A DNA stretch of 64,000 bases from Methanobacteriota archaeon (GTDB lineage Archaea > Thermoplasmatota > Thermoplasmata > SG8-5 > JAGLSY01): the NCBI GenBank assembly GCA_020697715.1, contig JAEHCO010000003.1:128001-192000 (forward strand). Reading direction: 5' to 3'. Below are positions 20,152 through 48,259 of this stretch, piece after piece; position 1 is the first letter of the stretch, and each line of letters opens with the position of its first letter. A program made the translations under genes and the position numbers. The notes under the pieces are model-generated. The model was not told where the DNA came from, searched no databases, and was given only the letters and a program-made list of their open reading frames with translations.

Positions 20152-20268
20152 TGCCCGAACCGGAATTCGAATCCGGGTCAAAAGCTCCGCAAGCTTTCAG
20201 GATATCCTTTGTAGGAGCAACACGAAGCCTCGCAAGGCGAAGTGATGCTCTAGCTACCCCATTCGGGC
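20152..20268 (-). tRNA. tRNA-Arg(GCG) with a 43-nt non-canonical intron in the D-loop (20209-20251)
   Basis: Acceptor GCCCGAA/TTCGGGC; anticodon arm AAAGC-TT GCG GA-GCTTT; T arm CCGGA-TTCGAAT-TCCGG. Removing the insert at the BHL cut sites gives D arm GGGTAGCTAGGATATCCT and a 74-nt tRNA. Confidence 0.9.
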
Positions 20269-44675: not shown

Positions 44676-44745
44676 ATGCCCCCTTCATGATTATTTATTG
44701 AATGTACCCACCCACTGGATAGTTATTTTTCTGTGTGACCACGAG

Positions 44746-44852
44746 TTTATATATCATAATCATTTTGTGGATTTGACTCAAATAGTCAGTATATCACAAT
44801 AGCCCCGAAGTGTGAAGACGGAGCCAAGCTCCTTACTTTACACAACAGGGCT
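44746..44852 (+). promoter_or_regulatory. TATA box and leader hairpin upstream of the tRNA-like RNA and gatE-gatD
   Basis: TTTATATA at 44746. Hairpin 44801-44852 is built from AGCCC/GGGCT, GTGTGAAG/CTTTACAC and GGAGC/GCTCC. Confidence 0.6.
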
Positions 44853-44876
44853 TCTGTAAATAAAACAAATCAATAC

Positions 44877-44950
44877 AGCCCCGTTGTGTAACGGTAGCAC
44901 GGGAGGTCTTGCACCTCCAGGCATCAGTTCGATTCTGATCGGGGCAACCA
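44877..44950 (+). tRNA. Atypical tRNA-Gln(TTG)-like RNA with encoded CCA
   Basis: AGCCCCG/CGGGGCA-A-CCA; D arm GTGT/GCAC; anticodon arm GGAGG-TC TTG CA-CCTCC; T arm ATCAG-TTCGATT-CTGAT. Deviations are A1.A72, C33 and C37. Confidence 0.8.
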
Positions 44951-44975
44951 TACCTATTAGCAAAAAGTGAGAAAA

Positions 44976-46796
44976 ATGATAGACCCCGAGAAAATCGACT
45001 ACAGGAAACTGGGCTTCAAGGCGGGCCTCGAGATACACCATCAGCTCAAGTCCTCCCGGAAGTTATTCTGCCACTGTCCAGCCGAGTTGTCGGCCGACCT
45101 GCAGAAGAACCCGGATTTTACATTCCACAGGCGCTTCAGGGCCGTGATGGGCGAGATGGGGGACTTCGACCCCGGTATGCTGGTCGAAGTTGAAAAGGGC
45201 TATCTGGTCATCTACCATGCGAATGACGCCCATGTGTGCACTTACGAGATGGACGATACTCCTCCATTCTGGCTGGACATGGAATCCGTGGATACTGGTT
45301 ATAAGCTGGCCAGTCTTTTCAATTGCGAGTCGCCAGCCGAGGAAGTTGTCATAAATCGAAAGCAGTACTTGGACGGTTCGATAACCACTGGTTTCCAGCG
45401 TACGATGATAATCGCCAGGGACGGTCATGTGAAGCTTGCCAGTGGCAAGAAGATCACTATCACGAATATCCTTATCGAAGAAGACTCGGCCAGGAAGATC
45501 AAGGCCGAGGATCGCGGTCGAACAGTCTATTACAATCTGGATAGGCTGGGTGTTCCACTTACAGAAATTATAACAGATCACAATGAGATCGACACGCCCG
45601 AGCTTTTAATTGAGGCCATAAAGATGATCGGTATCAATCTCAGATTAACGGGACTGGGTCGTCGCGGTATCGGTGTCGGCAGACAGGATGTGAATATCTC
45701 GATCGATGGTGGTGACAGAGTGGAGTTAAAGGGAGTTCAGGATCTTTCTTTATTGACAAAGTTCTGCGCCCACGAGGTTTGCAGACAGCACGCGCTCATC
45801 GATATTCAATCTAAATTAGCCAGCTTGAATCTGAAGAAGGAAGACTTCGAGCATAATTACATAGATATTACTCATTTATTCAATGATCTGGGTGAGGGAG
45901 AATCAGCCTTCGCGGTCAGGCTGCCCGGTTTTGAGAATATCCTCAAAACCGAAGTCCAGCCAGGCAAGGACTTTGGATATGAGATATTCGAGAAATGCAA
46001 TTTAATTACTGGCATCCTGTACGACGAAATGTTCCATTCGGGCGAGATGAGTCCGGGATCCATTCGCATGATGAACAGGTCGGATGATCTTTTCATCAAT
46101 AAGGGACAGGATGGCGAAATTCGAGCCATCCTGAAACTCGCACCAGGAGATGGATACGTAGCTGCCAGGGGTAGTGAGAAACCAGTTCTCCATACCCTGA
46201 AGAAGACAGTGGAGAGATGCAAGCAGGCCTTTGATGGCGTGCCCCAGGAGACAAGGCGAGTGTTGCCAGATGGTAATAACGAGTTCCTGCGCGTGATCCA
46301 TGGAAAAGGCCGTCTTTACCCGGATACGGACACTCCGCCAGCCCCCTATTCGATGGAGAAATTCCACGCGATAAAGGAAAAGGGCTGGACAAGACCACTT
46401 GACCTTCTCCAGAAATATGAGGAGAAGGGATTGAAATTGCCAATGCTGGAACTTATTATCCGCGATCAGAAGGTTCCATTGTTCCAGAAGTTGGTGGACG
46501 AGGCCAAGGTTCCAGTCTCTCTGGCTATTCGATTGACTGTGGAAATTCCCCGGTGGCTGAGGAGGAAAGGTCATGATTCGGAGATAATCAGCCAATTCAC
46601 AATGATCAGTATTGCTGGCAATGTCATGTCAGGAAAGCTACAGACAAAACACCTGCGCCCGATGATGAAGGAAATATGCATGGCTCCCAAGGAGAACCAG
46701 AGTTCGATAGTGACCAAATGGGTGGATCAGAACAATAAAAAGGATGAAGCGGGCGATGTAAGGGACAAATGGCCAGATGATGCGAGGTGTGTTTGA
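44976..46796 (+). CDS. gatE: Glu-tRNA(Gln) amidotransferase subunit E (divergent)
   Basis: GLEIHHQL, KLFCHC, DGSITTGFQRT, LDRLGVPL.EI, RQDVNISI, RVELKGVQ, GVPQETR and RLYPDTD. Confidence 0.9.
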   Translation: MIDPEKIDYRKLGFKAGLEIHHQLKSSRKLFCHCPAELSADLQKNPDFTFHRRFRAVMGEMGDFDPGMLVEVEKGYLVIYHANDAHVCTYEMDDTPPFWLDMESVDTGYKLASLFNCESPAEEVVINRKQYLDGSITTGFQRTMIIARDGHVKLASGKKITITNILIEEDSARKIKAEDRGRTVYYNLDRLGVPLTEIITDHNEIDTPELLIEAIKMIGINLRLTGLGRRGIGVGRQDVNISIDGGDRVELKGVQDLSLLTKFCAHEVCRQHALIDIQSKLASLNLKKEDFEHNYIDITHLFNDLGEGESAFAVRLPGFENILKTEVQPGKDFGYEIFEKCNLITGILYDEMFHSGEMSPGSIRMMNRSDDLFINKGQDGEIRAILKLAPGDGYVAARGSEKPVLHTLKKTVERCKQAFDGVPQETRRVLPDGNNEFLRVIHGKGRLYPDTDTPPAPYSMEKFHAIKEKGWTRPLDLLQKYEEKGLKLPMLELIIRDQKVPLFQKLVDEAKVPVSLAIRLTVEIPRWLRRKGHDSEIISQFTMISIAGNVMSGKLQTKHLRPMMKEICMAPKENQSSIVTKWVDQNNKKDEAGDVRDKWPDDARCV

Positions 46797-46859
46797 ATGA
46801 AGTCGCCATTGCTCCTCATTCAACTCGAAACCTCCAAAATTATGGAGGTTTCCCAATGA
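46793..46859 (+). promoter_or_regulatory. Junction cassette (family B) with coupled mini-ORF 46797-46859
   Basis: Stems TTGAATGA/TCATTCAA and GAAACCTCCA/TGGAGGTTTC. ORF MKSPLLLIQLETSKIMEVSQ* abuts the gatE stop and overlaps the gatD ATG. Confidence 0.8.
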
Positions 46860-48259
46860 GTGAAGAATACCAACCACCAGATGGTTACAGAGGTCCTCTT
46901 CTTGAGCGATTGGTCGAGGCCAAGATACGCACGTGGTCAGTGATCCAGGTGAATAAGACTGACGGATCACATTATGAGGGTGTGCTTCTGCCACGTTCCA
47001 TCCACACTTCTGATGATTATCTTTCCATCAAGGTGGACACTGGCTATAATATTGGCATCCAGCTTCCCGATGATGCCACAATAAAAGAGGTCGGCTACAA
47101 TGCGGGATCGTATCAAATTCCTGAGAAGATAGTGGAGAAGACAGCTGGACTTCCAAATGTCACGCTACTGGGCACAGGAGGAACAGTGGCCAGTCGTCTT
47201 GATTATCGAACTGGAGCCGTACTACCAGCCTTCACCCCATCCGAGCTTTTCTCCGCAGTTCCCGAGCTCATCGACATATGCAATTTAACTCCAAAGACCC
47301 TTTACCAGATACTTTCAGAGAACTTCTGCCCCGAATACTGGATAAAAACAGCTGAGGCAGTGGCCAAGGAGATCGAGGGCGGAGCAGATGGTGTGATAAT
47401 CGGTCATGGCACCGACACAATGAGCTATTCTGGCTCGGCACTTTCATACATGTTCCAGGACCTTCCAGTTCCAGTGGTCATCGTGGGCTCGCAGAGAAGC
47501 AGTGACCGCCCATCCAGTGATGGGCCCATAAACATGATGAACGCCACCACACTGGCCGCCTATGGTGATTTGGCAGAAGTGGTCGTCGTCATGCACGGGA
47601 CGACGAGCGACAATTACGACCTCATCCACAGAGCGACAAGGGTGCGCAAGATGCACAGTGCGCGGAGAGATACATTCCGCACTGTCAGTGATACCCCATT
47701 GGGCCAGATCAAGGATAAGGAGATCAAATACTTCAAGGACGATATCAGACGCCGCAGCCCGAAAGAGGACTTCCATCTGAACACCAAGATGGACGAGCGC
47801 GTGACCATGTTGTATTTCTACCCTGGCATGGAACCGGATGTCATGCACGCGGTCATCGACAAAGGCTATCATGGAATTGTCATGATCGGCACCGGATTGG
47901 GACATGTTGGCAAGCCCATGTATGAGGCTCTGGACAGAGCGCAGGAAGAAGAAATTCCTGTGGTCATTGTCGTCCAGCCAATGTTCGGCTTCTCACATCT
48001 TAGGGTTTACGAAACGGGCCGTGACATGCTTGCCCGTGGAGTGATAGAGGGCAAGAACATGCTTCCCGAGGCAGCACTTCCAAAACTCATGTGGGCGCTT
48101 GGCCAGACACAGGATGTGAAGGAAGTGGAAAAGATCATGCACACCAATCTCGCGGGCGAGATCACACAAAGAGAGCCATACAGTGGATTCCCAATATTCC
48201 AGGGTGGCGTTCCGAACTTCTATGATAATTATCGGAATGTCGATAGGCTGGAGAAGTAA
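46856..48259 (+). CDS. gatD: Glu-tRNA(Gln) amidotransferase subunit D
   Basis: GYNIGI N-domain, TGGTVASRLDYRTGAV, HGTDT, GSQRSSDRPSSD and RKMHS.RRDTF; ATG 46856 follows GGAGGT. Confidence 0.93.
   Translation: MSEEYQPPDGYRGPLLERLVEAKIRTWSVIQVNKTDGSHYEGVLLPRSIHTSDDYLSIKVDTGYNIGIQLPDDATIKEVGYNAGSYQIPEKIVEKTAGLPNVTLLGTGGTVASRLDYRTGAVLPAFTPSELFSAVPELIDICNLTPKTLYQILSENFCPEYWIKTAEAVAKEIEGGADGVIIGHGTDTMSYSGSALSYMFQDLPVPVVIVGSQRSSDRPSSDGPINMMNATTLAAYGDLAEVVVVMHGTTSDNYDLIHRATRVRKMHSARRDTFRTVSDTPLGQIKDKEIKYFKDDIRRRSPKEDFHLNTKMDERVTMLYFYPGMEPDVMHAVIDKGYHGIVMIGTGLGHVGKPMYEALDRAQEEEIPVVIVVQPMFGFSHLRVYETGRDMLARGVIEGKNMLPEAALPKLMWALGQTQDVKEVEKIMHTNLAGEITQREPYSGFPIFQGGVPNFYDNYRNVDRLEK

Follow-up and report, generated by a model that had tools for sequence, protein, structure and literature searches.

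A tRNA-Gln-like RNA with an open first pair at the head of gatE and gatD in a Thermoplasmata lineage: a candidate private partner of a changed GatDE amidotransferase

A complete RNA of tRNA-Gln type, in which A1 faces A72 instead of U72, stands directly ahead of the GatDE amidotransferase genes gatE and gatD in the window analysed here, a stretch of 64,000 nucleotides (nt) of contig JAEHCO010000003.1 from an archaeon of the Thermoplasmata (SG8-5). Comparison with related genomes showed that this RNA, called the A1·A72 RNA below, keeps its fold, its Gln anticodon and its open first pair wherever it occurs, and that it travels with one clade of GatE. The reading that appears to have an even chance of being correct is that it is a functional, trans-acting tRNA-Gln paralogue and serves the GatDE encoded next to it as a private partner, most likely as substrate. 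The genome under study is referred to as G000 (34 contigs, 2.12 Mb, 93.8% complete) and its relatives as G001 to G041, while L numbers denote gatE or tRNA loci, including those on metagenome contigs. The three features at the centre of the analysis are the following.

44877..44950, forward strand: RNA derived from tRNA-Gln, with A1·A72, the loop UCUUGCA (C33, UUG, C37), A73 and an encoded CCA, as found by ARAGORN, Rfam and direct reading.
44976..46796, forward strand: gatE (606 amino acids), the sole GatE gene of the genome; its product keeps the catalytic core, with no match found for a C-terminal YqeY-like tail.
46856..48259, forward strand: gatD (467 amino acids from the ATG), the sole GatD gene of the genome; ATG behind GGAGGT, with the frame open from a GTG at 46787.

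Two tRNAs were predicted in the window by ARAGORN, one of which is the tRNA-Gln(ttg) at 44877-44950 (+). The Rfam model RF00005 matched this RNA over model positions 1-71 with 45.8 bits (gathering score 29) and marked 1-72 as its sole non-standard pair. The acceptor strands, AGCCCCG and CGGGGCA, bring A1 opposite A72. The D arm reads GTGT-AACGGTA-GCAC, and the T arm reads ATCAG-TTCGATT-CTGAT. The anticodon arm, GGAGG-UCUUGCA-CCUCC, places C33 and C37 on either side of UUG (34-36), and the 3' end consists of A73 followed by the encoded CCA. All of the remaining 20 stem pairs are standard, U13·G22 among them. The initial annotation, which had described a full cloverleaf with UUG, A1·A72, C33, C37 and an encoded CCA, was thus accurate throughout, as judged by ARAGORN, Rfam and the letters themselves. 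A decoding elongator is expected to have U33 and a purine at 37, and the G000 copy has neither, whereas both are present in all 28 other parsed intron-less tRNAs of the genome. Its Rfam score is also the lowest among the full-length intron-less tRNAs of G000.

To trace the RNA further, the analysis used the order's 22 genomes (Thermoplasmata, SG8-5/Proteinoplasmatales kin), with 41 relatives sampled overall; the genomes compared are metagenome-assembled genomes of related organisms, and two of the seven loci lie on short contigs. Close homologues of GatE, with 65-93% identity, were found among the 41 relatives in three members of the same genus (G003, G001 and G002), in one of the same family (G004) and in two genomes assigned to family f4 (G017 and G018); all other matches were at or below 44% identity. 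A tRNA-Gln-like gene directly 5' of gatE was detected in G003, G001, G002, G018 and G004 by ARAGORN and Rfam. A covariance model, R1, was built from six copies of the A1·A72 RNA and run against each of the order's 22 genomes, where it scored 86-96 bits in exactly the seven genomes that carry this GatE clade and at most 74 bits in the other 15, the matches of up to 74 bits being canonical tRNA-Gln with U72. The initial annotation had asked whether the GatE clade shares the unusual tRNA, and all seven clade-bearing genomes of the order do.

The alignment of the seven orthologues carries the structural argument. In every orthologue, 20 of the 21 cloverleaf pairs are standard and only 1-72 is broken, and 11 stem pairs have changed on both sides. 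None of 500 shuffles reached the observed value in a covariation test, slid registers fell to 29-45% pairing, and RNAalifold recovered the cloverleaf independently from the alignment. The anticodon is UUG or CUG and the discriminator A73 in all seven, G18G19 and the T loop are conserved, and the D loop has 7-8 nt, compared with 8 nt in canonical tRNA-Gln and more in tRNA-Glu. A stands opposite A at 1-72 in seven of seven; A1-U72 was found in 22 of 22 canonical tRNA-Gln displayed from the order. On this evidence, the structure of the RNA is under selection, and it is neither a decaying gene nor a product of chance. The earlier argument that the intact stems speak against simple decay is borne out by the 11 compensatory pairs. 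A tRNA-Gln pseudogene in decay, carried along with gatE, would agree with the redundancy towards the two canonical genes described below and with the presence of several non-canonical positions. However, all seven keep every stem pair except 1-72 intact, and the anticodon YUG (Y, pyrimidine) and the tertiary G18G19/T-loop positions are invariant; together with the compensatory pairs, this brings the explanation close to refutation.

The anticodon loop is the variable part of the molecule, with positions 32, 33, 37 and 38 all changing among the seven orthologues. The loop UCUUGCA, with C33 and C37, is shared by G000, G003, G001 and G017, among which GatE identity goes down to 65%, while U33 and A37 are found in CUCUGAG (G002), GUUUGAC (G018) and AUCUGAU (G004). 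Since the anticodon is constant while 32, 33, 37 and 38 vary, something would seem to read it. Positions 32 and 38 are Watson-Crick paired in seven of seven, in four pair types, which gives an anticodon stem of 6 base pairs (bp). This pair was considered as a hallmark and downgraded, because normal tRNAs of G000 often have U32-A38 and the related RNAs on L088 and L095 have C·A and C·U; pairs of the U32-A38 type occur in 11 of the 30 parsed tRNA rows of G000, counting the A1·A72 RNA itself and one mis-parsed intron-bearing tRNA. An encoded CCA is found only in G000 and G003 among the seven. The invariant hallmark, as far as the orthologues reveal it, is the open first pair. Of the three deviations stressed in the initial annotation, A1·A72 therefore stands in every genome, but C33 and C37 are confined to four.

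The genome contains everything that is needed to make Gln-tRNA by another route, and the A1·A72 RNA is its third tRNA-Gln copy. It had been proposed to look elsewhere for a canonical tRNA-Gln(UUG) and for a second gatDE. The former is present at C11:290920-290991, together with a tRNA-Gln(CUG) at C32:24331-24402; both have A1-U72, U33, G37 and A73 and are followed by T runs. The latter was not found in G000: profiles, and canonical GatE and GatD of relatives searched against all six frames, returned only the gatE and gatD frames of the window. GatB was not found in G000 either. A gene for glutaminyl-tRNA synthetase (GlnRS) at C32:22304-23878, separated from the canonical tRNA-Gln(CUG) by about 450 nt, was recognised by TIGR00440 with 700.6 bits (cut-off 425.8) and by NF011291 with 815 bits (cut-off 681). 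The closest solved relatives of its product are chains of Escherichia coli GlnRS (about 675 bits, PDB 1qrs); chains of glutamyl-tRNA synthetase (GluRS), archaeal or other, scored 188-287. One archaeal GluRS, an asparaginyl-tRNA synthetase (AsnRS; 418 bits, over the cut-off) and two glutamine synthetase genes are encoded as well. With AsnRS, GlnRS and glutamine synthetase present, Gln-tRNA, Asn-tRNA and free glutamine should all be obtainable without GatDE, and the redundancy with GlnRS and the canonical tRNAs suggests that the A1·A72 RNA and its GatDE are dispensable for ordinary decoding in G000. Two simpler roles were set aside on the same inventory. GatDE as a maker of Asn-tRNA was ruled out by the presence of AsnRS and by the Gln anticodon of the RNA, and the idea that glutamine comes solely from a tRNA-dependent route by the two glutamine synthetase genes.

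It could be argued that the A1·A72 RNA is simply an ordinary extra isoacceptor, that is, a third, somewhat aberrant decoding tRNA-Gln which sits beside gatE for historical reasons and perhaps provides a GluRS/GatDE backup when free glutamine is scarce. Its Rfam score over the gathering score, its G18G19, T loop and A73, the U33 and A37 of three orthologues and the frequency of the U32-A38 type in normal tRNAs all suit such a molecule, and in the four module genomes where GlnRS was not found (see below) the indirect route may be the sole one. However, the canonical tRNAs already cover both Gln codons, the UCUUGCA loop is kept in four genomes, and C33 and C37 imply that an RNA carrying them would decode poorly. 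An unpaired 1-72 in seven of seven and the lowest Rfam score of its class are likewise unexpected for an elongator. This explanation is considered improbable, if still a serious one.

The enzyme encoded behind the RNA is recognisable but altered. The gatE ATG at 44976 lies 25 nt past the CCA and gatD follows gatE, both as initially annotated and as confirmed by the coordinates. The gatE product scored 355.3 bits with TIGR00134 (cut-off 319.55) and 422.6 bits with NF003107, which is under the 456 cut-off of that profile, and in both profiles the positions beyond about 555-565 (the last 55-65) were unmatched. Pfam returned GatB_N alone (141.6 bits), with no match of GatB_Yqey in the gatE product. 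The gatD product scored 504 bits with TIGR02153 (cut-off 324) and has the Asparaginase N and C domains plus GatD_N; judged from the GGAGGT in front of it, the ATG at 46856 is the likely start. An inverted repeat, AACCTCC...GGAGGTT (46829-46851, +), occupies part of the 59-nt gap between gatE and gatD. Its 3' arm holds the gatD Shine-Dalgarno (SD) sequence, and it may couple or control the translation of gatD. The motif RKQYLDGSITTGFQRT was read from sequence in the gatE/gatD products of the locus. The corresponding columns read RK.V.DGSNT.GFQRT in 17 canonical GatE of Thermoplasmata, which agrees with the motif that the initial annotation gave for typical archaeal GatE.

In the GatE tree, 17-19 canonical Thermoplasmata sequences stand apart from a second group, which combines a Thermoplasmata set ('GatE2') with three sequences from Asgard and with the studied clade, whose stem branch measures 0.83-0.85 substitutions per site. 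GatD sequences split into the same groups by score. The order of the genes is gatE then gatD in the studied clade and in Asgard, and gatD then gatE in eight of the eight canonical loci where both were seen. Several Thermoplasmata among G005, G008, G022, G027, G029, G031 and G036 have two GatE genes, a canonical one (gatD then gatE) plus 'GatE2'; in family f2, the GatE2 gene is divergently paired with a GatD of its own. Of 135 columns that are near-invariant in the 17 canonical GatE, 85 are kept in all seven clade members, including acidic, His and Arg core positions; the catalytic core is judged to be kept from this alignment and from the GatB_N match. The columns of the C-terminal tail motif are gapped in five of the seven. 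The motif RK.Y.DGSI is common to the studied clade, Asgard GatE and GatE2. The description of this GatE as divergent thus holds for the long stem branch and the lost tail domain, but the motif is not distinctive, since it is shared with Asgard GatE. In the Asgard genomes, the second-group GatE is the only GatE and GlnRS is absent, and it must therefore be an ordinary glutamyl-tRNA amidotransferase (Glu-AdT). By these comparisons, what is distinctive for the studied clade is the long branch, the loss of the tail and the unusual tRNA, and its GatDE looks active but changed.

The link between the RNA and gatE is close in most genomes. In six of the seven genomes and on metagenome contig L094, the RNA lies 5' of gatE with 27-52 nt between A73 and the ATG; at L094, a G018-like locus, it lies 44 nt ahead of gatE-gatD. 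SD-like GTGAGG/GGAG precedes the gatE ATG in loci of this leader type. Three further features of the window surround the RNA.

44737..44754, forward strand: promoter-like B recognition element (BRE)/TATA box (GACCACGAG-TTTATATAT), within the 201-nt gap after a gmhB-like gene.
44801..44852, forward strand: hairpin 5' of the A1·A72 RNA, its outer arms (AGCCCCG ... CAGGGCT) being copies of the acceptor strands of that RNA, as seen in the minimum free energy and centroid folds of 44676-44975.
44951..44975, forward strand: spacer of 25 nt without an oligo-T run, with an SD-like GTGAG at 44967-44971 ahead of the gatE ATG.

The motif GACCACGA[G/C]TTTATATATC is found 5' of the RNA in G000, G003 and G001, and we infer that the motif at 44737..44754 acts as a promoter. 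A T4 within 12 nt 3' of the RNA is absent in six of the seven genomes, unlike 21 of the 28 normal tRNAs of G000, which are followed by T4 or longer. Because no oligo-T separates the RNA from gatE, an SD-like element precedes the ATG and a TATA-like box is shared upstream, the tRNA, gatE and gatD of G000 are likely to form one transcript.

Two kinds of hairpin accompany the RNA. The 5' part of the hairpin at 44801..44852 resembles the first 25 nt or so of the A1·A72 RNA, and counterparts were seen in L004/L063 and L005/L064, with a longer loop in G003 and as a 7-bp minihelix in G001. The latter, AGCCCTG...CAGGGCA, is identical to the acceptor strands of G001's own A1·A72 RNA. The hairpin might have been left over from a duplication, or it might serve as a further substrate for processing or CCA addition or as an alternative pairing partner. 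A different hairpin without a T run occurs in the 44-52-nt spacer between the RNA and gatE at L066 (G018), L094 and L065 (G002), and between G018 and L094 its stem shows changes that preserve pairing (GGCTGT/ACAGCC versus GGCAG.../...CTGCC).

The leader position, the shared TATA-like box, the missing terminator and the SD-like element would all be expected if the RNA were a cis-acting leader of the gatED mRNA, either as a tRNA mimic bound by GatDE or GluRS:GatDE for translational repression, or as an RNase P/tRNase Z signal that sets and stabilises the 5' end. tRNA-like operators are known in mRNAs of aminoacyl-tRNA synthetases (PMC9976931). Yet the leader position is not universal. In G017 (L067), and likewise on L097, its counterpart among the metagenome contigs, the RNA stands as a unit of its own that is followed by T5 and cut off from gatE by an opposite-strand glutamine synthetase gene (L067 801-2312, -). 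A second lineage has an A1·A72 tRNA-Gln 3' of gatE. On L088, a tRNA-Gln(CUG) with the loop CUCUGUA lies about 145 nt 3' of a full-length gatE, and on L095, one with the loop CUCUGAU lies about 235 nt 3' of the end of a gatE fragment, which was left out of the tree. The L088 GatE falls inside the 'GatE2' clade as sister to the G027 GatE, with 60% identity and 98% support in the Shimodaira-Hasegawa-like approximate likelihood ratio test (SH-aLRT). A cis-leader role cannot hold at the G017, L097, L088 and L095 loci. In addition, the acceptor and T arms alone suffice for processing, which leaves the conserved D arm, anticodon stem and YUG unexplained, and PMC2330236 reports that GatDE does not read the anticodon. 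A role confined to the mRNA leader is therefore judged unlikely, although a cis role in G000 could coexist with one in trans. Among the three options offered in the initial annotation, a dedicated tRNA-amidotransferase module fits best, given the joint presence and absence of RNA and GatE and the availability of GlnRS, while the leader mimic is weakened by G017/L067 and by the lineage with the downstream gene. The third option, a tRNA in need of editing, found no support. Editing of the 5' end to U1-A72 and an initiator-like role were also considered, with nothing found in support.

Outside the loci described, R1 was searched with a limit of E<=1 in gatE loci of the canonical, 'GatE2' and Asgard types and matched none of them, and no tRNA was found at gatE loci L010-L032 by ARAGORN or at L010-L016 by Rfam. 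The best R1 matches in Asgard genomes were intron-bearing tRNA-Gln with A1-U72.

The distribution of the two routes to Gln-tRNA indicates which enzyme serves which tRNA. Within the order, a GlnRS over the cut-off was found in 14 of the 22 genomes and a GatE in 11; across the 41 relatives sampled, 19 have such a GlnRS. In f4, no GatE was found in 11 of 13 genomes, of which eight show a GlnRS match (over the cut-off in seven); GlnRS is thus enough for canonical tRNA-Gln. In 10 of the 14 genomes with GlnRS over the cut-off, no more than about 4 kb separates glnS from a canonical tRNA-Gln (usually CUG). The reverse assignment, GlnRS for the A1·A72 RNA and GatDE for the canonical tRNAs, was ruled out, because the eight f4 genomes with a GlnRS match lack both GatE and the A1·A72 RNA and because glnS adjoins canonical tRNA-Gln. 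GlnRS was found in three of the seven module genomes (G000, G003 and G001), all of them with C33/C37 (the fourth such genome being G017), and was not found in G002, G004, G017 and G018, which are 70-83% complete. Both canonical tRNA-Gln genes (UUG and CUG) are also present in G018, and G003 has two canonical-scoring tRNA-Gln matches, of which the one displayed is CUG.

A synthetase could still be the partner in another sense, if the RNA were a decoy or regulator that binds the bacterial-type GlnRS or GluRS without being used and so tunes the direct against the indirect route. The anticodon stem, as extended by the 32-38 pair in all seven genomes, presumably resembles the anticodon loop in its GlnRS-bound form, and the G000 GlnRS is close to the E. 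coli enzyme. Weak 1-72 pairs favour recognition by E. coli GlnRS, as seen with glutamine-inserting suppressors, and the tRNA-like mascRNA binds GlnRS without being charged (PMC9976931). Against this, the RNA is linked to gatED and not to glnS, which stands beside canonical tRNA-Gln; it is absent from the eight f4 genomes with a GlnRS match but no GatE, and GlnRS was not found in four of the seven genomes that have the RNA. A decoy is thus very improbable.

The case for a private tRNA-amidotransferase pair can be put as follows. Because the whole L-shape and the Gln anticodon are selected, an anticodon-reading protein, namely a synthetase, would use the RNA, and because the RNA co-occurs strictly with one GatDE clade and is linked to it in two gene arrangements, GatDE would be its partner. 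The RNA would be transcribed from its own promoter, in G000 together with gatE-gatD, and released by the normal tRNA-processing enzymes. The single GluRS would load it with glutamate by way of the YUG anticodon and A73, and a co-evolved GatDE with an intact core and an altered tRNA-reading periphery would amidate the product to Gln. Ordinary A1-U72 tRNA-Gln would be handled by the bacterial-type GlnRS, which was acquired horizontally, and the invariant A1·A72 would be the mark that insulates the two routes. With C33 and C37, the RNA would be a poor decoder in G000, and its Gln-tRNA product would probably be used by the ribosome marginally or not at all. The product might instead serve as a non-ribosomal glutaminyl donor, as a signal of nitrogen status or as a backup supply; the 'non-ribosomal' part is one that we infer. 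A glutamine synthetase gene at L067, as mentioned, and a glutamate dehydrogenase gene (gdhA) directly upstream of gatE on L088 (6173-6493, -) are hints of a link with nitrogen metabolism, not evidence for it. The recognition elements reported for GatDE are A1-U72 and the D loop (PMC2330236, PMC2943598), and loosening of the 1-72 pair is reported to change identity in favour of E. coli GlnRS (PMC9976931). Both enzymes being sensitive to 1-72, this is where the routes would be told apart, but the direction in which the mismatch acts is not deducible from the published elements. A bolder version, in which these archaea have two insulated glutaminyl-tRNA systems, with GlnRS and the canonical tRNAs for the ribosome and with GluRS, a co-evolved GatDE and a non-decoding A1·A72 tRNA-Gln for a role beyond translation (donating glutaminyl groups or reporting on glutamate, glutamine and nitrogen status), is possible but doubtful.

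Several points weigh against a private pair. A1-U72 is a positive element for the GatDE of Methanothermobacter thermautotrophicus (PMC2330236, PMC2943598), so that the mismatch could weaken recognition by GatDE instead of defining it. The loop looks normal, with U33 and A37, in three of the seven orthologues, where decoding is possible. If the four module genomes truly lack GlnRS, the studied GatDE also serves canonical tRNA-Gln there and is not exclusive. As the nearest outgroup GatE, that of Asgard, is an ordinary Glu-AdT, membership of the second group alone implies no new function, and the GatE2-type genomes G022, G029, G031 and G037 showed only A1-U72 tRNA-Gln. G041 has a clade GatE but no A1·A72 RNA was found there, although the search found no tRNA-Gln of any other kind in it either. 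The seven genomes are close kin, which means that the counts are not independent, and the contigs of G017 and G018 are short and could be mis-binned. Finally, the four metagenome instances (L088, L094, L095 and L097) came from a scan pattern that demanded A72-A73 and are no test of that feature.

The surroundings add little to this picture. A conserved third gene was ruled out, as only tRNA-gatE-gatD is kept and the neighbours vary: heptose-pathway genes and nuoH in G000, and TPR/AAA, VWA, UPF0029 and Kae1/TsaD plus a helix-turn-helix (HTH) regulator elsewhere. The genes for Kae1/TsaD (t6A37 synthesis) and the HTH regulator lie on different sides of the module in L094 (2151-3143, -) and L097 (1175-2191, -), and this adjacency is probably residual synteny. 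As for the tRNA complement of G000, ARAGORN at its defaults reported 22 genes and Infernal about 37 over the cut-off. Many are intron-bearing, with some introns long or oddly placed (C11:445252-445371 and C11:675676-675801), and a weak split-looking tRNA match lies in the window at 20152-20218 (-).

Archaea are described in reviews as lacking GlnRS, an absence attributed to GatDE having co-evolved with the A1-U72 pair that archaeal tRNA-Gln carries (PMC9499178); the wording of PMC8762117 is 'almost all archaea'. In the literature searched, no paper was found on an A1·A72 tRNA-Gln, on a gatE-linked tRNA gene or on GlnRS in Thermoplasmata. The lineage can be regarded as a natural experiment on this co-evolution: a bacterial-type GlnRS is in place and the canonical tRNA-Gln is unchanged, and the amidotransferase has been lost in 11 of 13 f4 genomes and elsewhere kept with a tRNA-Gln variant changed at exactly 1-72. 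This opens to test the role of 1-72 for GatDE, GluRS, GlnRS and elongation factor 1alpha (EF-1alpha), and the question of whether an amidotransferase can own a private tRNA. A natural orthogonal Gln pair, if real, would be relevant to genetic-code engineering. Should the reading with two insulated systems be true, it would provide the first non-ribosomal role for a tRNA-dependent amidotransferase and an orthogonal tRNA-Gln pair set by a single mismatch; should the RNA be a leader element only, it would still be a rare case of a complete tRNA as an archaeal mRNA leader.

Among known systems, the closest is the archaeal route of non-discriminating GluRS and GatDE studied in M. thermautotrophicus (PMC2330236, PMC2943598, PMC9499178). 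The GatD/GatE core is shared, and the A1·A72 RNA has the YUG anticodon, the A73 and the small D loop without the extra bases of tRNA-Glu. In contrast, the first pair is A·A in place of the A1-U72 element, and the GatE lacks a matched C-terminal tail, the part which reads the D loop. Compared with canonical GatDE loci, the gene order is gatE then gatD, and GlnRS and two canonical tRNA-Gln genes are also present.

A second parallel is pylT at the head of pylTSBCD (PMC9499178, PMC1851642), where an unusual tRNA gene also directly precedes the genes of the enzymes that act on the tRNA. The anticodon stem of tRNA-Pyl has 6-8 bp and that of the A1·A72 RNA 6 bp through 32-38, and both occur in Thermoplasmata-related archaea. 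The likeness is architectural only: the A1·A72 RNA has a sense Gln anticodon and implies no new amino acid, whereas tRNA-Pyl decodes a stop codon and brings one in. The non-proteinogenic tRNA-Gly of Staphylococcus aureus (PMC7826273) resembles the RNA as a supernumerary isoacceptor that breaks the rules of translation, there for a non-ribosomal process; the A1·A72 RNA departs at 1-72 and 33/37 and not in the T stem, and no non-ribosomal acceptor enzyme was identified for it here.

The retention of an amidotransferase beside a direct route has a counterpart in Deinococcus, Thermus and Bdellovibrio, which have GatCAB despite GlnRS and AsnRS (PMC4206432). In those bacteria, however, GatCAB uses ordinary tRNA-Asn and supplies asparagine, while the lineage studied here has AsnRS, two glutamine synthetase genes and a special tRNA. 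Lastly, the tRNA-like operators of synthetase mRNAs and mascRNA (PMC9976931) are comparable as a tRNA-shaped leader RNA, as in G000, or as a tRNA-like RNA that binds GlnRS. Those RNAs are partial or without a conserved anticodon, whereas the A1·A72 RNA is complete, with discriminator, CCA and anticodon, and in some genomes stands separate from the operon.

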